From: a virus
IMG/VR virus record: IMGVR_UViG_3300002461_000488
Span: 1 to 37,307 of that record
Direction: 5' to 3' (one strand)
Length of the DNA: 37,307 nt
This document shows, piece after piece, positions 1 through 37,307 of this stretch. A model generated the notes under the pieces. The model saw only the letters and a program-made list of their open reading frames with translations. It ran no database searches and was not told the origin of the DNA. The number at the start of each line of letters is the position of its first letter. The first letter of the stretch is position 1. Position numbers and translations under genes: made by a program.

Positions 1-58
1 GTTTTTATTATAAAGATATACCTTTAAGAGATATATTATTTAATTTAAGATTAGAATA
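1..58. repeat. 58-nt terminal duplication, identical to 37250..37307 (circular-contig overlap)
   Basis: Base-by-base comparison of the two window ends gives 58/58 identity. An ORF stays in frame across the junction. Confidence 0.95.
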
Positions 59-149
59 TACAACATATAAAAATAATATTGATTTTCAATTTCAGTTAAG
101 TGAAATTAATATTGAAGAATTAAGAAAAAAAATTAATAAAGTTATATAA
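3..149 (+). CDS. 3' part of the junction-spanning ORF (same gene as 36970..37307); hypothetical acidic protein
   Basis: Frame continuity checked by hand: FYYKDIPLRDILFNLRLE is encoded at both ends, and the TAA stop is at 147-149. Confidence 0.6.
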   Translation, partial: FYYKDIPLRDILFNLRLEYTTYKNNIDFQFQLSEINIEELRKKINKVI

Positions 150-1072: not shown

Positions 1073-1579
1073 ATGACAACAATAGTTATAGATAAAAAGA
1101 ATAAAAAAATGTTTGCTGACACAAAATTAACATTGGATAATATAAGTGCAACAGAAACAATAAAGATATTTAAAGAGGTTTTAAAGGACGGTTCAGAGGT
1201 TATTATTGGTATTGCTGGTGCTTATCTTAATGGGCTTAAATTAAAGGATTATTTGGTGGAAGTAGGATACCCTAATCAAGATAAAAAACTTAAACCTAAT
1301 TTTTATGATTTCACAAATGAAGATCCAAACAGTTCAGATAATGATTTTGAATTAGTTATTTTATATAAAAATAAAAAAATAATTAGTTATAGTTTAAATT
1401 TAATACCAATGGAAATAATAGAAGATCATTATTGTATTGGTAGTGGTGGAGATTATACAAAAGCAATTTTAATATATCAAAAAGATAATAACATTAAAAT
1501 TGATATTATAAGTGCTATTAAATCTGTAAGTAAAATTGATAAATCAACAAATGATAAAATAATGGTATTAAAATTATGA
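1073..1579 (+). CDS. HslV/proteasome beta-like Ntn-hydrolase peptidase
   Basis: N-terminal MTTIV, which would expose Thr after Met removal as in HslV. Also IKIFKEV (Lys33 region), VIIGIAGAY (like GFAGG) and CIGSGGDYTKAIL (like IGSGGPYA). No HslU-like ATPase gene is present. Confidence 0.7.
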   Translation: MTTIVIDKKNKKMFADTKLTLDNISATETIKIFKEVLKDGSEVIIGIAGAYLNGLKLKDYLVEVGYPNQDKKLKPNFYDFTNEDPNSSDNDFELVILYKNKKIISYSLNLIPMEIIEDHYCIGSGGDYTKAILIYQKDNNIKIDIISAIKSVSKIDKSTNDKIMVLKL

Positions 1580-6937: not shown

Positions 6938-6998
6938 CTTTTTACGAGTTTTTAAAATTTAGTTTACTTTACTTTTTAGTTTACTTTTTCCAAGAAAT

Positions 6999-7070
6999 AA
7001 AAAAAACCATCAATAGGAGTTGATGGCTTCTTTCATAGGGAGATAACAATGAAATTATTTTAATAATCTC
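6999..7070 (-). ncRNA. candidate ~70-nt antisense small RNA carrying an anti-Shine-Dalgarno stretch
   Basis: It lies between a near-consensus minus-strand promoter (7077-7105) and a minus-oriented intrinsic terminator: CCATCAA/TTGATGG hairpin at 7007-7026 plus an 8-nt U run from A8 at 6999-7006. No plausible ORF. Confidence 0.35.
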
Positions 7071-7076
7071 AATTTA

Positions 7077-7105
7077 ATTATATTGTATATACATAAAAAA
7101 GTCAA
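7077..7105 (-). promoter_or_regulatory. minus-strand sigma70-like promoter TTGACT-17nt-TATAAT
   Basis: The reverse complement of 7077-7105 reads TTGACTTTTTTATGTATATACAATATAAT. The spacer contains the GTATATAC palindrome. Confidence 0.6.
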
Positions 7106-7218
7106 TCATATTTTTAAAATATATTTAATTTACTTTACTTTACTTTTAAACTTTCTATTTAAGAAATTTTTGATATAATTCTTTTAAGTATATACAATAA
7201 AATATAAAGGTTTTTAAA

Positions 7219-10522: not shown

Positions 10523-12151
10523 ATGAGTAAAGAAAATAAAAACACTTTTCTAAATAGATTAGGAAGTTTTGTAGGTTTTGGTAAAAAAGAAGAAAAAATA
10601 TTAAAAAAATCATTTAATATTGCTAAAAATAATAGATTAAATAATAGTTTTAATGTATCTAAAAGTGATATTAACAGTGATGTATATACAGACGGTTACA
10701 GATTAATGGTTATTGCTCGTAATTATGAGAAAAATAATCCATTTGTAAGAAAATTTTTAAATGTTATGGTTTCAAATGTTATTGGTGCTACTGGTTTTAC
10801 TTTATTTGTAAGAGGTGCTGATTATAAACCTGAAACTGTTGATAATAAAACAATATATAAAGCATATATTGATGAATATGCTAATAAAGTTGTTCAAGAT
10901 TCATTTTGGGATTGGACAAAAAAAGGGAATTGTGATCAATCTGGTGTTTTATCATTACAAGAAATTGAGGAATTAATGGTAAGACAACTTATTCGTGATG
11001 GAGAGTTTCTTATTGTAAAACATAAAGGTGGTAAAGAATTAAATAAATGGGGTTTTAAATTACAACTTATTAATAATGAAAGATTTGACCGTTATTTATC
11101 TGGAACTAATCCAAAAAATGGTAATAAAATAGTTATGAATGTTGAATTAGATGAAAACAATAAAAGAATTGCTTATTATTTTAGTAAAGTTATTGTTTCA
11201 GTAGTTCCAGGAATGCAACAACCAAGTTCAAAAAAACAAACAGATTTTGGTAATTATATTAGAGTTGAGGCAAATGATTGTTTACATATTTTTAAAGCAA
11301 CAGACGCAGAACAATTAAGAGGTTATAGTCATTTAGTGGCTGGTTTAGAAACATTAGAACATTTGGAGGGATACCAAGAGGCTGAACTTGTTAATGCTCG
11401 TGCAAGTGCTGGTAAAATGGGTTTCTTTATTAGTAATGGACAGAATGTTGAACAATTAGATATTGCAGATTATGAAACAGAACAAGGCGAGTTTATTAGT
11501 GAAGTAGAACCTGGAACTTTCCACGTTTTACCTAATGGATATGATTATAAAGAGAATAATCCAAATTATCCTCAAACATATGATAAATTTGTTAAAGTTA
11601 ATTTAAGAACTGTTGCAAGTGCTTTTAATATTTCTTATGAAGAATTAGCAAATGATAGAGAAAATGTTAATTTTTCAAGTATTCGTGCTGGTATGATTTC
11701 TGATCGTGAGATATTTAAATCATTACAAACTTTTTTAATTGAAAATGTTTTAGATAATATTTATGAAGAATGGTTAAAAAATTCATTACTTAATAAAGCG
11801 ATTATTTTTCCAAATGGTGCTGTTTTATCTTTTGATAAATTTGATAAATTTAAAGTACATCAATGGAGAGGTAGAGGTTTCCCTTATGTAAATCCAGAAC
11901 AAGATATAAATGCAAGTATCAAGGCTGTTGCATTTGGTTTATCAAGTAGACAAAGAGAGGCTGAAAAATTAGGTATTGATATACAAGAAATATTTGATGA
12001 ATTGGCTTGGGAAAAACAACTTGCTGAAAGTAAAGGTATTAACTTATCAAATGCTGAAAACGTTTTAAGTGCTGGTAATACAGAAAATCCAGCAGATAAA
12101 GAAAATCAAAATAATGATAATACAAACAATATTAATAATGTAAAAAAATAA
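10523..12151 (+). CDS. portal protein, lambda family
   Basis: NNPFVRKFLNVMVSNVIGATGF and NVNFSSIRAGMISDRE resemble lambda gpB-type portals. Size and position fit. Confidence 0.8.
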   Translation: MSKENKNTFLNRLGSFVGFGKKEEKILKKSFNIAKNNRLNNSFNVSKSDINSDVYTDGYRLMVIARNYEKNNPFVRKFLNVMVSNVIGATGFTLFVRGADYKPETVDNKTIYKAYIDEYANKVVQDSFWDWTKKGNCDQSGVLSLQEIEELMVRQLIRDGEFLIVKHKGGKELNKWGFKLQLINNERFDRYLSGTNPKNGNKIVMNVELDENNKRIAYYFSKVIVSVVPGMQQPSSKKQTDFGNYIRVEANDCLHIFKATDAEQLRGYSHLVAGLETLEHLEGYQEAELVNARASAGKMGFFISNGQNVEQLDIADYETEQGEFISEVEPGTFHVLPNGYDYKENNPNYPQTYDKFVKVNLRTVASAFNISYEELANDRENVNFSSIRAGMISDREIFKSLQTFLIENVLDNIYEEWLKNSLLNKAIIFPNGAVLSFDKFDKFKVHQWRGRGFPYVNPEQDINASIKAVAFGLSSRQREAEKLGIDIQEIFDELAWEKQLAESKGINLSNAENVLSAGNTENPADKENQNNDNTNNINNVKK

Positions 12152-12205: not shown

Positions 12206-14209
12206 ATGAAACAAATTGAGAAAAATTTTAAATCATATGGTGTTAGAGCATATGAGATTTCTAAAAGTAATATAGATACTGAAAGTAGAACTATAACAGT
12301 AAGTGCATCAAGTGAAACACCATATAAAAGATATGATGAAGAATTAGGAGAATACTGGGAAATTTTAGGACATAATAAAGAAGAAGTTGATTTATCAAGA
12401 CTTAATAATAAAAGTGCTTTTTTATATGAACACGATCCAAAAAGACAAATAGGTGTTAATGAAAGTGTTTATTTAAATGAAACTTTAAAACAAATTATAG
12501 CAAAAGTTAGATTTAGTAAAAATGATTTTCCAAATGAAGTATTTAATGATGTAATTGATGGTATTCGTTCTAAAATTTCCATTGGTTATAAAATAAATAA
12601 AGCAATTATTGTTGGATATGATGAAAATAATATACCAATAGTTAGAGTTATTGATTGGACTGGTATGGAAATTTCAAGTGTTTCAACACCAGCAGATGAT
12701 TCTATTGGAGTAATTAGATCTATAAGTAATGAAGAACAAAAAACAAGTATTAAACTTATGGTAGAAGTTAAAGATGAATTACCAAATGAAATAAAAAATG
12801 AAGATAATTTAAATCCAAAACTTGGAGAAGAATTACCTAATTTAGAAGTTGAAAAAGAAAAAAATAATGAAAAACTTGATATTGAAAATAAAAAAAGCGA
12901 TAATAATTTAAATATTGTTATAGAAATTATTGACAATAAAAGTAAAAATAGCGAAAATATAAAAAATGGAGCAAATAATATGAACTTACAAGAAATTTTT
13001 AAAAAGGCTGAGGCTTTTGGAGTAGAGGATAAAGTTGTTAATTCTTTTTTAAGAACTGGTAAAACAGAAGAAGAATTTGACAATTTCGTTAAAGAACACA
13101 ATTCACAAAAAACAAAAGGAATGAATATGGACCAATTAGGATTAAATACACAAGATAAAGAAATTAAGGAATATAATTTATTCCGTGCTATTAATAGTTT
13201 GATTTCTGGACGTGATTGCCAAGAGTTAGAAATGTCTCGTGAAATCGCTAAAAAATCTGGACAAGAAATCCAAGGTTTGGCTTTACCTTTATCTTTCATT
13301 AAAGCAAGTGCTTTAAAATCAATTAAACACCGTGCTTATAATACAGCAGGAGCAGACGCAAGTGGTGCAAGTAATTTAGTTGCTGAAATATTAGACGCTA
13401 CAAACTTTGTTGATATTTTAAGACCACAATTAAAAAGTGCGGCTCTTGGAGTTAGAACAGTTTCAGGTTTAGTTGGAGATTATGCAGTTCCAGTTAAAAC
13501 TTCTGGTATGTCTAATACTTGGGTTGGAGATTCTGGTGCTTCCACTGAGTCAAGTGCAGTTTTTGATAAGAAAGTTTCTAAACCAAAAATGTTAGTTTCT
13601 GAAACACAATTGTTTGAGTTATCAATGAAACAAATGACACCTGATGCACAATTCCTTGCAATGGACGATATGATTAAAGCAAGAGCAGTTGAATTAGATA
13701 GAGTAGTTTTTTGGGGTTCTGGTGCAAGTAACCAGCCAAATGGTGTAGGTAATACAGCAGGTGTTCCAGTAATTGCAATGGGTACAAACGGTGGTGCTAT
13801 TACTCGTAATGCTTTAATTGATTTAATGAGTGCATTAGGTAATGTTGATGCAAACGTTGATGGTGCAAGATTTGTATCAAACTTTAAAATTAAAGCAGCG
13901 TTAATGAAATTACAAGCAGATGCTGGTTCTGGTTTATTTGTATGGGACGAGTTCAAGGATATGTTCCAAATTACAAACAACATACCAAGCAACCTTGTTA
14001 AAGGTACTTCTGGTGCTGTATGTTCTGGTTTAATTCTTGGTGACTTCTCTGATGTATGTATTACTGAGTGGGGTGTTCCAGAGTTGATTGTTGACCAATT
14101 CACATTGGCAAAATACGGTAAAGTAAATATCTATATGAGACAAGCAACTGACGTTTTAGTACGTAGACCAGCAAGTTTTGCAGTAATCAAAGATATTACC
14201 ACAGCATAA
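12206..14209 (+). CDS. fused prohead protease (S78/HK97-type) - K/E/N-rich linker - HK97-fold major capsid protein
   Basis: The N-terminus has FLYEHDPKRQIG and SKISIGY (His/Ser protease motifs). The C-terminal ~400 aa resemble an HK97 capsid protein (ILRPQLKSAALGVRTVSG...WVGDSGA). An in-frame ATG at 12980 is preceded by aatggag. Confidence 0.8.
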   Translation: MKQIEKNFKSYGVRAYEISKSNIDTESRTITVSASSETPYKRYDEELGEYWEILGHNKEEVDLSRLNNKSAFLYEHDPKRQIGVNESVYLNETLKQIIAKVRFSKNDFPNEVFNDVIDGIRSKISIGYKINKAIIVGYDENNIPIVRVIDWTGMEISSVSTPADDSIGVIRSISNEEQKTSIKLMVEVKDELPNEIKNEDNLNPKLGEELPNLEVEKEKNNEKLDIENKKSDNNLNIVIEIIDNKSKNSENIKNGANNMNLQEIFKKAEAFGVEDKVVNSFLRTGKTEEEFDNFVKEHNSQKTKGMNMDQLGLNTQDKEIKEYNLFRAINSLISGRDCQELEMSREIAKKSGQEIQGLALPLSFIKASALKSIKHRAYNTAGADASGASNLVAEILDATNFVDILRPQLKSAALGVRTVSGLVGDYAVPVKTSGMSNTWVGDSGASTESSAVFDKKVSKPKMLVSETQLFELSMKQMTPDAQFLAMDDMIKARAVELDRVVFWGSGASNQPNGVGNTAGVPVIAMGTNGGAITRNALIDLMSALGNVDANVDGARFVSNFKIKAALMKLQADAGSGLFVWDEFKDMFQITNNIPSNLVKGTSGAVCSGLILGDFSDVCITEWGVPELIVDQFTLAKYGKVNIYMRQATDVLVRRPASFAVIKDITTA

Positions 14210-14223
14210 TATTAAATAATAAG

Positions 14224-14257
14224 AAAAACCCCTAATTTAGGGGTTTTCTTTTTTTAG
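14224..14257. terminator. bidirectional terminator AAAAACCCCTAATTTAGGGGTTTT
   Basis: CCCCT/AGGGG stem flanked by an A-run and a T-run, between convergent genes. The same element recurs at 17164 and 22545. Confidence 0.75.
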
Positions 14258-14265
14258 TAAATTAT

Positions 14266-14442
14266 TTATATCCATTTACCTTTTGTATTTTTAATTATAT
14301 ATTCATTTTGTTGAATAATAATTGAGTTAAGTTTTAAATTAATTTCTTGATATTGTTTTATTGTAAATAATAATGAAAAATTTAAATAAACAACAAATGT
14401 AATAACTAAAACAAATAAACTTAAAATAATTTTTTTAAACAT
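14266..14442 (-). CDS. small membrane protein (58 aa), third gene of the antisense cassette
   Basis: Hand translation: MFKKIILSLFVLVITFVVYLNFSLLFTIKQYQEINLKLNSIIIQQNEYIIKNTKGKWI, with one N-terminal TM segment. ATGTTTAA overlap with the upstream ORF. Not in the ORF track. Confidence 0.5.
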   Translation of the reverse strand: MFKKIILSLFVLVITFVVYLNFSLLFTIKQYQEINLKLNSIIIQQNEYIIKNTKGKWI

Positions 14443-14530
14443 TTTTATACCCCTTTTTTAATGATAATCTTAATTCTTCTTTTCCCATTTCTTTTAAAAT
14501 GTTTTTAATCCATAAATATATTTTTTTCAT
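14435..14530 (-). CDS. small basic peptide (31 aa)
   Basis: Hand translation: MKKIYLWIKNILKEMGKEELRLSLKKGYKNV. RBS aaggagat lies 5 nt upstream. Confidence 0.45.
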   Translation of the reverse strand: MKKIYLWIKNILKEMGKEELRLSLKKGYKNV

Positions 14531-14539
14531 AATATCTCC

Positions 14540-14635
14540 TTATTTTTTATATTGTTGAAAATAAATTAAAACCATAATACTTACTATATCAATAACAACT
14601 AAAACCTTTAATAAATAAACATATTGCTCTATCAT
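14540..14635 (-). CDS. small hydrophobic peptide (31 aa)
   Basis: Hand translation: MIEQYVYLLKVLVVIDIVSIMVLIYFQQYKK. RBS aaagga upstream, and first gene after the class-A promoter. Confidence 0.45.
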   Translation of the reverse strand: MIEQYVYLLKVLVVIDIVSIMVLIYFQQYKK

Positions 14636-14662
14636 AATAAATCCTTTTTAACTTATAATTAT

Positions 14663-14691
14663 ATTTATACTGGTAATTTTATAAAAGTCAA
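14663..14691 (-). promoter_or_regulatory. class-A promoter on the minus strand
   Basis: The reverse complement reads TTGACTTTTATAAAATTACCAGTATAAAT. Confidence 0.6.
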
Positions 14692-14713
14692 TAAAAACTT
14701 TAAAAAAGATTGA

Positions 14714-14741
14714 TTGATTTTATTATTTATTATGATATAAT
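14714..14741 (+). promoter_or_regulatory. class-B promoter TTGATT-16nt-(TG)aTATAAT restarting the structural operon
   Basis: TTGATT at 14714-14719 and TATAAT at 14736-14741. Nearly the same 30-mer occurs at 17795-17822. Confidence 0.6.
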
Positions 14742-14767
14742 TTTTTATATATCAATAAAGGATTAAT

Positions 14768-16208: not shown

Positions 16209-17147
16209 ATGGCAAAAGCAAGTGGATCAAGAGTTAAATTTAACATAGGTAAAGAAACTACTATGGGAACACCAGCGACAGCAATGCAGACTTTAAAATC
16301 TGTGGTTGTTGGCGAGAGTTTAAATTCAAGTGCAAGTGAATTACAATCACAAGCAATTACAGAAATTAGAGATATTTCTGGTTTAAGAAATGGTTTGTAT
16401 TCAGTTTCTGGTACTTTGGGTGTTGAAATTGCAACAGAGGGAACAGAAATATTTTTTGAAGGTCTTTTAGGTGCAAAAACAGTTACTGGGGCAAGTGCAC
16501 CATACACTAAAACTTATAGAAGAGCATCAATTATACCAAGTTATACTATTGAACGTGTATATACAGGAACAACACCTTTAATGACACAAGTTTATTCTGG
16601 TGTAAAAGTTAATCAAATGAACTTTACATTTGAACCAGGATCATTAGTAACAGCATCAACAGATATTATAGCAATGAAGTCAGAAAAAGGTACAGCAGTT
16701 ATAGACGCTACACCAGAAGAATTTGTACATATTCCTTATGCTGGTATAGATGCTAATTCTATTAAAATTAATGGTGTAACTACAAAAGTAATTAAAGGTA
16801 CTTTAACTATTACTAATAATTTAGAGGCTACAAACGTTTTAGGTTCTCAATTTGCAGATGATGTAGTTGAGGGAAAAGGCGAAGTAATGGGTGAGTTTGA
16901 TTTGTATTTTGAAAATAGAGTACATTATGATTTATTTGATACTGAGGCTGTTTTTGAAGTTGAAATAGTTTTAACAAGAGGAACAAAAACAATAACAATT
17001 ACTATACCTAATGCTAAATTTTCTGGAAATAGAGATATACCAGTTGCAACAGATAAAGCCCTTATTGCTACATATACTTTTAAAGGTATACAAGATACAG
17101 CAATAAACGGAGCAGTTGAAATATTTGTAGTTAATGATAATGCTTAA
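16209..17147 (+). CDS. major tail tube protein
   Basis: Position lies between the connector genes and the chaperones. Abundant-protein codon pattern, strong RBS aatggag, and a beta-rich S/T/G/V composition. Confidence 0.6.
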   Translation: MAKASGSRVKFNIGKETTMGTPATAMQTLKSVVVGESLNSSASELQSQAITEIRDISGLRNGLYSVSGTLGVEIATEGTEIFFEGLLGAKTVTGASAPYTKTYRRASIIPSYTIERVYTGTTPLMTQVYSGVKVNQMNFTFEPGSLVTASTDIIAMKSEKGTAVIDATPEEFVHIPYAGIDANSIKINGVTTKVIKGTLTITNNLEATNVLGSQFADDVVEGKGEVMGEFDLYFENRVHYDLFDTEAVFEVEIVLTRGTKTITITIPNAKFSGNRDIPVATDKALIATYTFKGIQDTAINGAVEIFVVNDNA

Positions 17148-17163
17148 TTAAAGCAATAAAAGA

Positions 17164-17188
17164 AAAAACCCCAATTTGGGGTTTTTCT
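17164..17188. terminator. bidirectional terminator AAAAAACCCCAATTTGGGGTTTTT
   Basis: CCCCAA/TTGGGG stem with a flanking A-run and T-run, between convergent genes. Confidence 0.75.
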
Positions 17189-17201
17189 TATTTATTTATA
17201 T

Positions 17202-17291
17202 TTAAATTTTTGTTACAGCATACATACATAAAACAGTCCAAGAACCAAATACAATTATATATAATAAAAAATTTTTAATTTTATTTTTCAT
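17202..17291 (-). CDS. hydrophobic micro-protein (29 aa)
   Basis: Hand translation: MKNKIKNFLLYIIVFGSWTVLCMYAVTKI. RBS aaagga lies within the end of the upstream gene. Not in the ORF track. Confidence 0.4.
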   Translation of the reverse strand: MKNKIKNFLLYIIVFGSWTVLCMYAVTKI

Positions 17292-17296
17292 AATTA

Positions 17297-17728
17297 TTAT
17301 CCTTTATAACTTTTAGGGTTTAATATTTCACTTACAAAATTTACTGTTTCATTATTTTTATTAATAATTAATAATTCTTTATTTTTTTCTTTAAATTCTT
17401 CAAAATTTTTAAGTTTTCTATATTCAACAGTATTACCCATTTTTATAGCATTTTCTATACCACAAGCCATACCAGAACTAATACCTAAATCTGTATATAC
17501 AATTGTTTGATGAATTATTTTTCTAAACTCAAAACCAGCCTCAATACCAAAATTTCTTTCTTCTAAAATATTATCATCTAATATTTGTGTATAAAGTAAA
17601 TGTGATAAGTAAGGTGCCTCACCATTATATAAACACTCTTTCATACACTCACGAGCATAAAGTACATTATACTCTTGTTGTTTTACATTTTTATTGAAAA
17701 ATGGACTTTCTATTATTACTAATTTCAT
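17297..17728 (-). CDS. conserved phage protein, nucleoside 2-deoxyribosyltransferase-like fold family (DUF4406/DUF7768-type?)
   Basis: IIESPF...YARECMKECLYNGEAPYLSHLLYTQILDD...ERNFGIEAG...VYTDLGISSGMACGIENA matches a recurrent phage family as I recall it. RBS aaggagat. Confidence 0.5.
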   Translation of the reverse strand: MKLVIIESPFFNKNVKQQEYNVLYARECMKECLYNGEAPYLSHLLYTQILDDNILEERNFGIEAGFEFRKIIHQTIVYTDLGISSGMACGIENAIKMGNTVEYRKLKNFEEFKEKNKELLIINKNNETVNFVSEILNPKSYKG

Positions 17729-17759
17729 ATTATCTCCTTTTTTAATTAGTTATTTTTAA

Positions 17760-17785
17760 TTTACCAGTATAAAAATAAAAGTCAA
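17760..17785 (-). promoter_or_regulatory. class-A promoter on the minus strand with the 12-mer inverted
   Basis: The reverse complement reads TTGACTTTTATTTTTATACTGGTAAA. The 12-mer has the opposite orientation to the 14663 and 22996 copies. Confidence 0.55.
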
Positions 17786-17794
17786 TAACAAAGA

Positions 17795-17822
17795 TTGATT
17801 TATTTATTTGTTATGATATAAT
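17795..17822 (+). promoter_or_regulatory. class-B promoter TTGATT-16nt-TATAAT
   Basis: TTGATT at 17795-17800 and TATAAT at 17817-17822. Confidence 0.6.
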
Positions 17823-22529: not shown

Positions 22530-22544
22530 TATTTTAAATAAAAG

Positions 22545-22571
22545 AAAAACCCCTAATTTAGGGGTTTTTTT
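22545..22571. terminator. bidirectional terminator AAAAACCCCTAATTTAGGGGTTTTTTT
   Basis: Same core sequence as the 14224 copy, between convergent genes. Confidence 0.75.
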
Positions 22572-22582
22572 ATTTAAGTTTT

Positions 22583-22966
22583 TTAATCAATTATTTTCCA
22601 TATTTCTAAATTATCTATTTCTATATTAACTCTTTGTATTACTGTATTTAAATTATTATTTAATAAATTTTTAATAAGTGAAACTTTATATTTATTTATA
22701 CTTGTTTCAGTTAATAATTCTTTTTGTAATCTAAAAAAAGAATTAAAAAATTTATAATCCCATAAACCAAACTCAATATTATTTAATTTATTACTAAATT
22801 CAGTATAAGAAAAATTATCATTATTTATAAATTTTTGTAAATCTTCCAATTGTTTTAAAGTTATCTTTAAAATTTTACTTTTTTGTGTTTCTTTTCTAAA
22901 AACTTGATTTTCAGTTTTATCAAACTGTGTATTAAAATAAAAATCATCATATCTTGTATTTCTCAT
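22583..22966 (-). CDS. hypothetical protein (127 aa), antisense accessory gene
   Basis: RBS taggag, its own class-A promoter and a terminator. No motif recognised. Confidence 0.55.
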   Translation of the reverse strand: MRNTRYDDFYFNTQFDKTENQVFRKETQKSKILKITLKQLEDLQKFINNDNFSYTEFSNKLNNIEFGLWDYKFFNSFFRLQKELLTETSINKYKVSLIKNLLNNNLNTVIQRVNIEIDNLEIWKIID

Positions 22967-22995
22967 ATAAACTCCTATTTATGTTATATTTTTAT

Positions 22996-23023
22996 TTATA
23001 CTGGTAATTTTTAAAAAAGTCAA
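22996..23023 (-). promoter_or_regulatory. class-A promoter on the minus strand
   Basis: The reverse complement reads TTGACTTTTTTAAAAATTACCAGTATAA. Confidence 0.6.
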
Positions 23024-23110
23024 GTTTAAATTAATAAAAATACATAATATAGAAAATAAAGATTTATTTTTGTATAATTTATGATATAGTATTTTAAAAG
23101 GATAAATAAA

Positions 23111-31473: not shown

Positions 31474-31538
31474 ATTTTTAACATAGTAAATTAAAATAAA
31501 TACAATTATAATAAAAAAAAAGGTATATGGTGGTTAAA

Positions 31539-31901
31539 ATGAATATAAATGAAAAAGAAAAAATAAAAGAGCAAATAGTTGTTTTAAATAATCTTTTAGA
31601 AAGTTTAAATAATTTAGATCAAAATAATTCAAGAGTTCAAGAACAAATATTATTAGTAAAAAATCAAATAATTGATTATAATTTAGAACTTGTTGAAATA
31701 AATAAACACATACCTTTAAAAACAAGATTAATAAATAACTTTTTTAAAAGTAAAACTGTTATGTTAAATTTGGTTTTAATTGCTTTTGAATTATTAAATA
31801 TATTTACTGATATATTTAAAGATAGTAATAATGAAAATTTAAGAATGTTGGCAATAATTATACCAGCATTAACAATATATTTAAGAACATTTCAAAAATA
31901 A
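31539..31901 (+). CDS. holin candidate (start probably 31539 rather than 31527)
   Basis: Two C-terminal hydrophobic segments (VMLNLVLIAFELLNIF and MLAIIIPALTIYL), directly upstream of the endolysin. The ggtgg RBS favours the ATG at 31539. Confidence 0.5.
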   Translation: MNINEKEKIKEQIVVLNNLLESLNNLDQNNSRVQEQILLVKNQIIDYNLELVEINKHIPLKTRLINNFFKSKTVMLNLVLIAFELLNIFTDIFKDSNNENLRMLAIIIPALTIYLRTFQK

Positions 31902-31910
31902 GGATTTAAT

Positions 31911-32540
31911 ATGAATTTAGAAAAATTAAAAAAAGTATTATTAGGTGTTGGAGTTAAACAAAATAATGTAGATTTATACACACCAATATTAATTAAAGAA
32001 TGGGAATGTATTGGTTTAACTGATGATGAAAAACAACTTTGGTTTTTATCAAATTGTTTAACTGAGACAGGTTATTTAACTACATTAGTTGAGAATTTAA
32101 ATTATAGTGCTCAAAGACTAATGGCAGTATTTCCATCTTTATTTAAAACATTAGATTTTGCAAAACAATATGAAAAAAATCCAGAAAAATTAGCAAATTA
32201 TGTATATGACAGTAGAGTTAGAAAAAATACTATGGGTAATAATTTTGATGGGGCTGGTTGGAAATACAGAGGAAGAGGATTTTTTCAAACAACTTGGTAT
32301 GGAAATTATAAAATATTAGCAGAAAAAACAGGTATTGATTGTCTTAATAAACCTGAATTATTAGAAATACCAGAAATTGCTGTAAAAAGTGCAAGTATCT
32401 ATTGGAAAGTTGGAAATTTAAGTAATAAACCTAATTTAAAAGAAGTTAGGAAATCAATCGCTGGTAGTTATTTTGGTTATAATGATCATATATTACCAAA
32501 TTATTTAAAATTAAAATCTGTATATAATAAAGTATTGTAA
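31911..32540 (+). CDS. endolysin, glycoside hydrolase family 19 (chitinase-like)
   Basis: NCLTETGYLTTLVENLNYSAQRL ... GNNFDGAGWKYRGRGFFQTTWYGNY matches the GH19 phage lysin signature. Confidence 0.8.
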   Translation: MNLEKLKKVLLGVGVKQNNVDLYTPILIKEWECIGLTDDEKQLWFLSNCLTETGYLTTLVENLNYSAQRLMAVFPSLFKTLDFAKQYEKNPEKLANYVYDSRVRKNTMGNNFDGAGWKYRGRGFFQTTWYGNYKILAEKTGIDCLNKPELLEIPEIAVKSASIYWKVGNLSNKPNLKEVRKSIAGSYFGYNDHILPNYLKLKSVYNKVL

Positions 32541-32568
32541 TTATTTATTTTTATGATAATATATTTAA

Positions 32569-32671
32569 AATAAGTTGACTGAGTTTGGTTTAAAGTTGAG
32601 TATACATAAAGCCTTAAAATCTTGTATAAAGTATATTTTAGGGTTCAAGAGTTCGAATCTCTTACTTATTT
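32569..32671 (+). tRNA. oversized tRNA-like gene, class-II-like; best guess Leu(UAA) with an aberrant anticodon arm
   Basis: Perfect 7-bp acceptor stem AATAAGT/ACTTATT and canonical T arm AAGAG-TTCGAAT-CTCTT. The D arm has GG in its loop. The middle section (~102 nt total) does not form a canonical 5-bp/7-nt anticodon arm by hand. Confidence 0.5.
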
Positions 32672-32679
32672 TTTACAAT

Positions 32680-32754
32680 CTGTGTTTAGGCTATTGGCAA
32701 GTCACTTCCTTTGGAGCGAAGATATAGTAAGTTCGATTCTTACAGCACAGACCA
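32680..32754 (+). tRNA. tRNA, probable Pro(UGG), with encoded CCA
   Basis: Hand-folded cloverleaf of 75 nt including CCA. Acceptor CTGTGTT/AGCACAG (one G-U), D stem GGCT/AGTC, anticodon arm CTTCC-TTTGGAG-CGAAG (C31-C39 mismatch) and T arm GTAAG-TTCGATT-CTTAC. Confidence 0.7.
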
Positions 32755-32770
32755 AAATTATATATAATAA

Positions 32771-32803
32771 GGCAATCAATAATGATTGTCTTTTCTTTTT
32801 TTT
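32771..32803 (+). terminator. rho-independent terminator after the tRNAs
   Basis: GGCAATCA / TGATTGTC hairpin plus a long T-run. Confidence 0.65.
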
Positions 32804-32836
32804 ATGATAGAATATTTTAAATAAAGGAGTTATTTA

Positions 32837-33061
32837 ATGGAAAATCAACATAGACTTATTAAAGGTTATAAAGAATTATCACAAGAACAAATTAATTTAA
32901 TGAATACAATTAAATCAAAAGGTGCTGAATTATTAATTTTAATTAAACAATTAGAACAAGATAAAGAAACTGATAAAAGGTGGGTTTCTATTGGTAAAAC
33001 AGACTTACAAACTGGATTTATGGCATTAACAAGAAGTGTAACTAAACCTGATTTTTTATAA
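32837..33061 (+). CDS. small helical protein, possibly of the Acb2/Tad1-hairpin-like family
   Basis: EQINLMNTIKSKGAELLILIKQLE ... DKRWVSIGKTDLQTGFMALTRSVTKP fits the recurrent phage motif RW.aIa.T.LQ.GfM...R as I recall it. Confidence 0.4.
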   Translation: MENQHRLIKGYKELSQEQINLMNTIKSKGAELLILIKQLEQDKETDKRWVSIGKTDLQTGFMALTRSVTKPDFL

Positions 33062-33065
33062 TACT

Positions 33066-33467
33066 ATGATATACTTAACATTAATAAAAACTCTCATTTG
33101 GGACAATAAAATAATAAGAAATATTTTTTTAGGCTTATTATTATTTATTATTTTGTATTTTTCTTATCAATCATTTTACAAATCAATTTATAATAAAGGT
33201 TATAATGAGGCTGTAAAAATAACTCAAAAAGATTTAAATAATAAATACAATATTGCAGTTGAAAAAATAAAAAAAGAAAATTTAGAACAAAGTTATACTG
33301 AAAATAAAAAATTAGAAGAGGCTCAAAAAACAAGAGATTTAATACAGAAACAGTATAACGAAACAAATAAAAAATTAAATGAATTAATAAAAAATAGTAA
33401 AAGTAATTTAGTTAATAAAGAGTGTAAAGCAGATAAAAAAGAAGTTGATTTTTTTAACGATAATTAA
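33066..33467 (+). CDS. type-II membrane coiled-coil protein, i-spanin (Rz-like) candidate
   Basis: N-terminal TM segment IFLGLLLFIILYFSY followed by a long K/E/N coiled region. Confidence 0.45.
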   Translation: MIYLTLIKTLIWDNKIIRNIFLGLLLFIILYFSYQSFYKSIYNKGYNEAVKITQKDLNNKYNIAVEKIKKENLEQSYTENKKLEEAQKTRDLIQKQYNETNKKLNELIKNSKSNLVNKECKADKKEVDFFNDN

Positions 33468-36145: not shown

Positions 36146-36320
36146 GATGACTTTAAAGATTGGTTTGGGGTAAATTTGCTCTTAATAACTCAACAGTCAA
36201 GGGTAAGAAAGACTATATCTCGTAAAGGTATAGCATACCAAAATCTTAGTATAATAACTTGGAATAAGAGTCAGTTAATATTATATGTAATTAAACCACT
36301 TTAAAAGGTGGTTTTTTTAT
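36146..36320 (+). ncRNA. candidate ~175-nt structured small RNA
   Basis: It has a promoter and an intrinsic terminator (ACCAC..GGTGG plus T7) but no ORF longer than 9 codons. It is locally GC-enriched. Hand-found helices are AAGATT/AATCTT, CTCTTA/TAAGAG, AGTC/GACT and GGTAT/ATACC. Confidence 0.4.
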
Positions 36321-36333
36321 TTTCTAAAAAGTA

Positions 36334-36364
36334 TTGATTTTTATTTTTATACTGGTAATATATT
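36334..36364 (+). promoter_or_regulatory. class-A promoter with the 12-mer inverted (TTGATT..TTATACTGGTAA TAT)
   Basis: TTGATT at 36334-36339 and the 12-mer at 36347-36358. Confidence 0.55.
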
Positions 36365-36883: not shown

Positions 36884-36910
36884 AAACCACTGTAAAAGGT
36901 GGTTTTTTTT
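36884..36910 (+). terminator. rho-independent terminator (near duplicate of 36293..36318)
   Basis: AAACCACTGTAAAAGGTGGTTTTTTTT compared with AAACCACTTTAAAAGGTGGTTTTTTT. Confidence 0.7.
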
Positions 36911-36920
36911 GTTCTTATGA

Positions 36921-36949
36921 TTGACTTTTTTATTATTACCAGTATAATT
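36921..36949 (+). promoter_or_regulatory. class-A promoter
   Basis: TTGACTTTTTTATTATTACCAGTATAATT. Confidence 0.65.
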
Positions 36950-36969: not shown

Positions 36970-37307
36970 ATGAAAAATTTTAAAGTTAAAGCAGTTAATC
37001 TTTATGGTTCTTTAAATGAAAATAAAGAATTAGTAGGTTTTGAAGAGTGGGAAGATATTATACAGAGTGAAACAAAAGAAGAATTATTAAATATGTTAGG
37101 TAATAATAATCAAGTAATAAGTATTGAAGAATTAGAAGAAGATTTTAATACTGAAAAATTTAATTTACAAAATAATATTGAAACATTAAAAGAAATTAAG
37201 GATTTAGTTGGTAAATTAATAACAAAAGAATCACATTTAGATGATTCAAGTTTTTATTATAAAGATATACCTTTAAGAGATATATTATTTAATTTAAGAT
37301 TAGAATA
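36970..37307 (+). CDS. 5' part of the junction-spanning acidic hypothetical protein (about 159 aa after collapsing the overlap)
   Basis: RBS aaggag. The ORF runs off the window end and continues in frame at 59..149. Confidence 0.6.
   Translation, partial: MKNFKVKAVNLYGSLNENKELVGFEEWEDIIQSETKEELLNMLGNNNQVISIEELEEDFNTEKFNLQNNIETLKEIKDLVGKLITKESHLDDSSFYYKDIPLRDILFNLRLE
37250..37307. repeat. Second copy of the 58-nt terminal duplication
   Basis: Identical to 1..58. Confidence 0.95.

Follow-up and report, generated by a model that had tools for sequence, protein, structure and literature searches.

Is the AT-rich segment directly behind the capsid gene of IMG/VR virus record IMGVR_UViG_3300002461_000488 a set of genes, a regulatory spacer, or both? 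The stretch analysed here, referred to as the window, covers positions 1 to 37,307 of that record; its GC content is 24.6% and nearly all of its genes lie on the plus strand. Between 14,224 and 14,745 this order is interrupted by cassette 1, an insert of ~16% GC and negative GC skew that carries three very small open reading frames (ORFs) on the minus strand. The sign of the skew flips at two other inserts too. The best explanation, which we consider probable, is that cassette 1 is an independently transcribed antisense accessory operon, set in a swap-prone slot between the capsid and head-completion genes and perhaps encoding early membrane effectors. What is well supported is a new orphan micro-protein family in a known accessory architecture, a result of annotation and architecture and not a new mechanism.

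Three micro-ORFs and their conservation

Three ATG ORFs follow one another on the minus strand: ORF-C (31 aa, 14540-14635), the first gene of the operon, ORF-B (31 aa, 14435-14530) and ORF-A (58 aa, 14266-14442). A preliminary description of this DNA, made from the sequence alone, had placed them at these coordinates beside a bidirectional terminator, and both the ORFs and the terminator are indeed found there. Together the ORFs occupy 361 of 403 nt; no shuffled sequence matched this coverage (0 of 5000) and none gave three such ORFs (0 of 5000). Each is preceded by a conserved Shine-Dalgarno sequence (AAGGA, AAGGAG and GGGG, with AAGGAG before ORF-B), and the ATG of ORF-A overlaps the stop codon of ORF-B (ATGTTTAA). 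ORF-C and ORF-A each contain one strong hydrophobic segment (KD19 maxima 2.67 and 2.46, respectively) and ORF-B is basic and amphipathic with a net charge of +6, which agrees with the earlier division into two single-membrane-segment peptides and one amphipathic peptide. The claim that the peptides resemble nothing known also held: the micro-proteins and the corresponding cargo of the relatives gave no meaningful match in Pfam, PHROGs, PADLOC or NCBIfam, and PDB sequences searched with an ORF-A profile gave none.

Relatives were recovered from public assemblies by means of the capsid and ORF-A. The close set consists of contigs L001, L006, L013 and L014, giving five phages with the window; the capsids of L001 and L013 are 75-78% identical to that of the window, the partial capsid of L006 is 76% identical, and the L014 capsid, truncated at the contig end, is by eye nearly identical to that of L001. 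The cassette occupies this position in all four, under the same promoter and closed by the same terminator, and each of them retains ORF-A and ORF-C, with many substitutions and frame-preserving indels. The frames stay open despite indels in stop-codon-rich DNA of ~16% GC. We regard the ORFs as real genes: ORF-A almost certainly, ORF-C very probably, and ORF-B probably, with less assurance. Retention of ORF-A and ORF-C in these relatives, and of ORF-A in unrelated phages as well, leaves the coding interpretation standing. Two other origins of the pattern were rejected. A single larger gene broken by frameshifts does not account for ORFs that each have their own Shine-Dalgarno sequence, or for the occurrence of ORF-A alone elsewhere; and constraint imposed by a plus-strand gene fails in that the opposite strand holds only a 29-aa TTG ORF.

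The same evidence bears on whether the ORFs are incidental, the segment serving only as a transcriptional insulator or as a non-coding antisense RNA. A position behind capsid and tail tube, the most abundant structural genes, is one where attenuation would be useful, and a terminator with a restart promoter there would suit an insulator; the lack of any Rfam match in the cassette counts neither way. However, ORF-A belongs to a conserved family with dN/dS below 1 in other genomic contexts, the reading frames persist through indels as described, and a Shine-Dalgarno sequence is conserved before every ORF. We find this explanation scarcely credible.

ORF-A has an N-terminal membrane segment and a C-terminal helix, and AlphaFold2 models residues 2-53 as one continuous helix (pLDDT 92). 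Its family, an orphan one, comprises 15 proteins that have in common a basic N-terminus, the membrane segment, an NF.LL motif and a C-terminal IIQQN..I.K.T.GKW(I) motif. When the ORF-A profile was run exhaustively with HMMER against 1.84 billion cluster representatives, it returned only three true clusters, together with one repetitive false match, and the family is therefore narrow as well as orphan. Pairwise dN/dS values of 0.14-0.66 indicate that ORF-A is under purifying selection.

Homologues of ORF-A occur in at least three phage contexts. One is the lineage of the window. In L010, the gene belongs to a series of small overlapping genes that all point the same way, with genes for endonuclease VII and an HslV-like protein nearby. 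A further context is a podovirus with a P22-type coat protein, represented by six contigs (L011, L012 and L017-L020); here ORF-A closes a short operon that also encodes a 77-aa multi-pass membrane protein and is convergent with the holin-like/Rz/Rz1 genes of the late operon. ORF-C is absent from both of these other contexts. This distribution suggests that ORF-A is an accessory gene able to pass from one unrelated phage to another, and such portability argues for a host target and not for a phage-specific role in assembly. We infer that these phages share environments, as L004 and L017-L020 come from neighbouring SRR2794xxxx runs (sample accession numbers). The N-terminal half of the window's ORF-A is closer to the L010 allele than to the L001 allele, which suggests allelic replacement. 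All six podovirus contigs break 160-716 nt upstream of the ORF-A homologue, and the breaks adjoin an AT-rich direct repeat (ATAATATCATATAAATATATAATATCATATCATATAAATATATAAT in L019); the break may be a genome end or an assembly-breaking repeat.

ORF-B is well conserved in L001 (81% identity) and L014. A 1-nt change in an A-run disrupts its N-terminus by frameshift in L013, and in L006 it is cleanly deleted; its dN/dS of 0.5-1.0 derives from few changes. ORF-B is probably translated but dispensable.

ORF-C has one predicted membrane segment and a basic C-terminus. The pattern LLK..V.ID..L.Y is invariant in the five phages, and places Lys10 and Asp16 inside the hydrophobic segment; it is unlikely that two charged residues conserved in a membrane segment are accidental. 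Frame, Shine-Dalgarno sequence and hydrophobic character are kept in all five phages even at 37% identity. Values of dN/dS range from 0.33 to 1.3 for this short peptide with few synonymous sites. Single-membrane-segment micro-peptides of 36-41 aa also open the post-capsid antisense cassette in three more distant relatives (L007, 7287-7397; L009, 7031-7156; L008, about 6985-7109; all on the minus strand). In these, as in ORF-C, 'LIY' ends the membrane segment; this is a likeness only, and homology is unproven.

The features of ORF-C raise the question of a type I toxin. On that explanation ORF-C and/or ORF-A would be pore-forming or depolarising peptides for host shut-off, and late read-through from the capsid gene would provide a silencing antisense RNA. 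In its length of 31 aa, and in its plan of a single membrane segment with a basic tail, ORF-C is like the Fst- or TisB-type peptides; the invariant Lys and Asp within its hydrophobic segment would also be in keeping, and capsid transcription does converge on the cassette across the shared terminator. Yet models for Hok, Fst/Ldr and TisB in Pfam and NCBIfam gave no match to ORF-A, ORF-B or ORF-C even at E<=10, the predicted 5' untranslated region is short (~20 nt) with no sign of a dedicated antitoxin RNA, plus-strand promoter-like matches inside the cassette occur at chance level, and a multi-gene operon is unlike typical type I loci. We judge a toxin of this kind unlikely.

A repeated scaffold with variable cargo

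The cassette is bounded on its capsid side by an intrinsic terminator that is bidirectional (14222-14257, both strands). Its hairpin (14224-14248, AAAACCCCTAATTTAGGGGTTTT) has arms AAAACCCC-TAATTTA-GGGGTTTT flanked by a T-run on each strand, and it is scored as a terminator whichever way transcription runs. The chance expectation for the hairpin motif is 0, and within 12-25 kb there are 8 terminator-like sites against 2.2 expected. Judged from its sequence, the hairpin would end both the capsid transcript and the antisense transcript of the cassette. Near-identical copies lie at 17163-17187 and 22543-22571, and a hairpin occupies the same place in all relatives.

At the other end of the cassette are two back-to-back promoters, both as described earlier. 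The minus-strand promoter (TTGACT-16-TATAAA, 14691->14664, with the -35 element at 14691-14686 and the -10 element at 14669-14664) is near-consensus sigma-70-type and conforms to a motif, TTGACTTTT-N7-TTACCAGTATAAA, that we call class A. Both elements are kept in the window and the four close relatives in the form TTGAC(T/A)-16/17-TATAA(A/T). The class-A motif also occurs at 2781 (plus), 17785 (minus), 23023 (minus), 36334 (plus) and 36921 (plus), giving at least six copies in the genome; written as TTGACTTTT-N7-TAC[CT][AG]GTA..., the motif precedes the plus-strand units as well. The sites at 36334 and 36921 are immediately downstream of terminator-like hairpins, and the cassette promoter appears to match in class the promoters that precede these presumed early units (36.3-37 kb). 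Its plus-strand counterpart, TTGATT-16-TATAAT extended by an upstream TG (14714-14741; class B), would restart transcription of the structural genes; copies are found at 17795-17822 and 23063-23090 and it is kept in the relatives. With its own promoter and its own terminator flanking the cargo, the cassette has the make-up of an autonomous unit. In the region of the presumed early units, two plus-strand composites of a terminator followed by a class-A promoter (36280-36360 and 36885-36948; AAACCAC..GGTGGTTTTTTT then TTGA[CT]TTTT...) flank a 156-aa orphan gene, in an arrangement like that of the PeSL cassettes considered below.

The scaffold of terminator and divergent promoters is present three times in the window, after the capsid, tail-tube and tape-measure genes, and the recurrence proposed in the preliminary description is borne out at 17163-17822 and 22543-23090 with clear sequence similarity. 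The second antisense module (17163-17822, minus strand) follows the tail-tube gene (16209-17147, plus strand) and comprises the terminator, a 29-aa micro-ORF, a DUF7768-type gene and the divergent promoters. Its micro-ORF (17202-17291, minus strand; MKNKIKNFLLYIIVFGSWTVLCMYAVTKI) reads as one membrane segment and is preceded by AAGGA, a Shine-Dalgarno sequence that comes directly behind the DUF7768 gene; in L014 a 72-aa gene takes the place of this micro-ORF. The main cargo is a DUF7768 or nucleoside 2-deoxyribosyltransferase-like gene of 143 aa (17297-17728, minus strand), and DUF7768-type cargo of 272 aa (L013, 1425-2243) and 210 aa (L014, 1419-2051) occupies the same slot after the tail tube. 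A literature search on DUF7768 returned no papers. In the third module (22543-23090, minus strand) a 127-aa orphan gene (22583-22966) stands between the terminator and a class-A promoter (23023-22995), and the plus-strand restart promoter completes the set.

How the slot behaves over longer distances can be seen in six distant relatives (L003, L004, L005, L007, L008 and L009) with capsids 46-64% identical to that of the window. All six have a terminator hairpin just 3' of the capsid gene, followed by minus-strand cargo. A TTGAC-type minus-strand promoter back-to-back with a plus-strand restart promoter was found in all four of those checked (L005, L007, L008 and L009); the L003 and L004 contigs end inside the cassette and do not cover the promoter side. 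The cargo itself differs among five groups, namely the window with L001 and L006, L003 with L004, L005, L007, and L008 with L009. It consists of soluble Lys-rich small proteins in L003, L004 and L005, of a 36-aa peptide with a single membrane segment together with a 91-aa protein in L007, and of a single 41-aa membrane-segment peptide, the smallest cargo, in L008 and L009. No empty site, with the flanking genes directly adjacent, was present among the 10 relatives examined, all of which carry antisense cargo. From this comparison of contigs the slot is best read as ancestral and its cargo as prone to swapping. L008 also has a ~40-nt inverted repeat (about 7128-7168; ACTATAACTTTACTGAT...ATCAGTAAAGTTATAGT), with an equivalent in L009, between the minus-strand promoter and the 41-aa ORF, which could be an operator or a regulatory hairpin.

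Expression, host and possible function

On the reading that we favour, the class-A promoter would start an mRNA of ~430 nt that ends at the shared hairpin and is translated as ORF-C, then ORF-B, then ORF-A, with ORF-B and ORF-A translationally coupled. ORF-A would be the portable core effector and ORF-C its partner in the lineage of the window. Both would insert into the host inner membrane soon after infection, taking no part in virion assembly, and act on a component of the host envelope, most likely to block either the entry of competing phage DNA or a host process located in the membrane, for example division or the synthesis of the envelope. The scaffold of terminator and divergent promoters would let cargo be swapped without disturbing late-gene expression. 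The specific function, that of one or two effectors made early and acting on the host inner membrane, is put forward tentatively. In the preliminary description exclusion, toxin and lysis-timing functions had been named together as typical of such peptides; as applied to these peptides, that is a guess.

The position of the cassette relative to the virion genes accords in part with the earlier statement that it splits the capsid and connector genes. It does follow the capsid, but the gene directly before it encodes a prohead protease-capsid fusion (12206-14209, plus strand), and the lambda-type portal lies upstream (10523-12151, plus strand). On the 3' side are head-completion genes, for an 80-aa DUF7210-like protein and then a head-tail attachment protein. 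Plus-strand genes for the small and large terminase subunits and a head-tail joining protein are also present, and the tape-measure and other tail genes come after the tail tube.

Lysis genes occupy a separate module at 31527-33467, on account of which the cassette was rejected as the phage's own holin. This module contains a holin candidate of 124 aa (31527-31901, plus strand), in which two hydrophobic C-terminal stretches were read from the sequence as membrane segments, directly upstream of the endolysin gene (31911-32540, plus strand), and a spanin-like gene (33066-33467, plus strand). Also encoded in the window is a 105-aa XhlA-like protein, which combines a coiled coil with a membrane segment at its C-terminus. 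The cassette peptides might instead modulate the timing of lysis, as antiholin-like or holin-accessory proteins that act in the membrane with the holin or the XhlA-like protein and so delay or sharpen lysis. ORF-A and ORF-C are both small and predicted to be bitopic, the charged C-terminus of ORF-C is holin-like, the podovirus ORF-A adjoins the holin-like/Rz/Rz1 cassette convergently, and an XhlA-like protein of the same layout is found in both phage types. Set against these points, the cassette is 17 kb from the endolysin gene in the window, that gene already has a holin candidate beside it, the cassette peptides gave no match to holin or antiholin families in Pfam or PHROGs, the ORF-A gene of L010 is near nuclease and peptidase genes and not lysis genes, and the promoter class is one common to presumed early units. 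A role in lysis timing is, in our view, quite unlikely.

Between the endolysin and spanin-like genes lie a tRNA-Pro gene (32680-32754), the only Rfam match in the window, and, between that gene and the spanin-like gene, a 74-aa protein (32837-33061, plus strand) with an Acb2/Tad1 hairpin domain (PF24729, E=4.5e-18). By its domain, the latter is likely to be an anti-CBASS/anti-Thoeris nucleotide sponge.

The first 59 bases of the window (1-59) are identical to the last 59 (37249-37307), and the assembly is therefore complete and circular, at ~37.25 kb. A plus-strand replication block encodes a polymerase-exonuclease, a resolvase and a primase, and an HslV-family peptidase-like protein (1073-1579, plus strand; phrog_1040, E=4.8e-18) has a related gene in L010. 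No integrase or repressor was detected among the ORFs scanned in the window, and neither the capsid nor ORF-A matched anything in 185,579 species genomes. Since no integrase was found and the capsid and ORF-A are unmatched in these genomes, this uncultured, low-GC phage is probably virulent. GenBank phages searched by DNA gave no match, the nearest known phages, found by protein search, are only 27-35% identical, IMG/VR yielded a single close relative contig, and scans of JGI metagenomes with ORF-A and with a capsid profile gave none. A Gram-negative host is suggested by the spanin-like genes in the window and by the embedded Rz/Rz1 pair of a phage with an ORF-A homologue.

These properties bear on the term moron, which the preliminary description had used. 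In the sense of an autonomous unit within a late operon it agrees with the sequence. In the sense of lysogenic conversion, the cassette would be expressed from a prophage and would protect or alter the lysogen, in the manner of lambda bor or HK97 gp15. Its own promoter and terminator, and a GC content lower than that of its neighbours inside a late operon, are what such a gene would display, but the assembly closes into a complete circle, the ORFs scanned gave neither an integrase nor a repressor, the genome encodes its own primase, polymerase-exonuclease and resolvase, and its capsid and ORF-A are unmatched in the species genomes. We consider a lysogenic-conversion role very unlikely.

Several points weigh against early membrane effectors as the explanation. 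Promoter similarity within the sequence is the sole ground for early timing, and the class-B restart promoters are also sigma-70-like, so that separate early and late classes can only be presumed. The peptides have no characterised homologue, and the case for their function is built on nothing but size, topology, genomic context and portability. An interaction between ORF-A and ORF-C is drawn only from their co-occurrence in one lineage, and ORF-A occurs elsewhere without ORF-C. The dN/dS values of ORF-C (0.33-1.3) and ORF-B (0.5-1.0) are on their own no proof of purifying selection.

A bolder reading, which we regard as unlikely, is that ORF-A, with ORF-C as partner in this lineage, is the founding member of a class of mobile phage membrane effectors not described before, passed between unrelated phages that infect one low-GC Gram-negative host group. 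Such a class might include a charge-bearing micro-pore peptide gated by a single-pass partner. If that were true, pore and partner, encoded in an antisense slot open to exchange, could control the host membrane potential and, through it, either the entry of competitors or the timing of lysis. Aside from this reading, the locus shows that ORFs below the 60-aa annotation cut-off can be real, selected genes, as they are here, and it defines an orphan micro-protein family, that of ORF-A, common to unrelated uncultured phages. If a role of the peptides as envelope effectors is confirmed, they would enlarge the small group of phage micro-proteins whose host targets are known.

Comparison with known systems

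Type I toxins such as Hok, Fst and TisB resemble the cassette products in being peptides of ~30-60 aa with one membrane segment, and the charged residues within the helix of ORF-C are reminiscent of the charge pattern of TisB. They differ in the features already given, in that the cassette matches none of their models, is arranged as an operon and has no evident antitoxin RNA.

The concept of the moron comes from the comparative genomics of HK97 and lambda, with lambda bor and HK97 gp15 as examples. Cassette 1 is similar in being an autonomous promoter-gene-terminator unit between late genes, with a base composition unlike that of its neighbours, and the cargo of morons is likewise often a small envelope protein. 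In contrast, the window has no sign of lysogeny, which makes prophage expression, the usual rationale for a moron, unlikely, and an empty site turned up in none of the relatives; the slot as such appears to be ancestral.

Precedents for the proposed function are small early proteins that act on the envelope. T4 Imm and Spackle, the latter periplasmic, are small early envelope proteins that mediate superinfection exclusion (PMC7677548), and Gp11 of Staphylococcus phage PhiNM1 is a small early membrane protein that blocks division and peptidoglycan synthesis (PMC11237401). The cassette peptides would be like these in being small, expressed early rather than with the virion genes, and active at the envelope, although their topology, timing and function are predicted only. 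They have no sequence or family relationship to Imm, Spackle or Gp11, and models of known superinfection-exclusion and defence proteins in Pfam, PHROGs and PADLOC gave no match to them.

The architecture closely parallels the PeSL (promoter-early stem-loop) cassettes of T4-type phages, composites of a sigma-70-like early promoter with a stem-loop terminator that lie on either side of ORFan genes and through which modules are shuffled (Arbiol et al. 2010, PMC2839356; Comeau et al. 2014, PMC4122927); accessory-cargo hotspots in phages are established more generally (PMC9122126). Like PeSL, the window repeats a strong sigma-70-like promoter and a stem-loop motif, with three terminators, at least six class-A promoters and two composites, and brackets small, non-essential ORFan cargo that varies between relatives while the scaffold stays. 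Unlike PeSL, the scaffold here belongs to a lineage that is not T4-like (lambda-type portal and terminase, protease-capsid fusion, 37 kb), its cargo is antisense within the late structural operon, and the cargo separates its promoter from its terminator, a restart promoter being paired with them. We therefore describe the scaffold as analogous to PeSL and do not claim it as a member; as such it would extend a PeSL-like organisation beyond the T4 group, to exchangeable antisense slots after the capsid, tail-tube and tape-measure genes.

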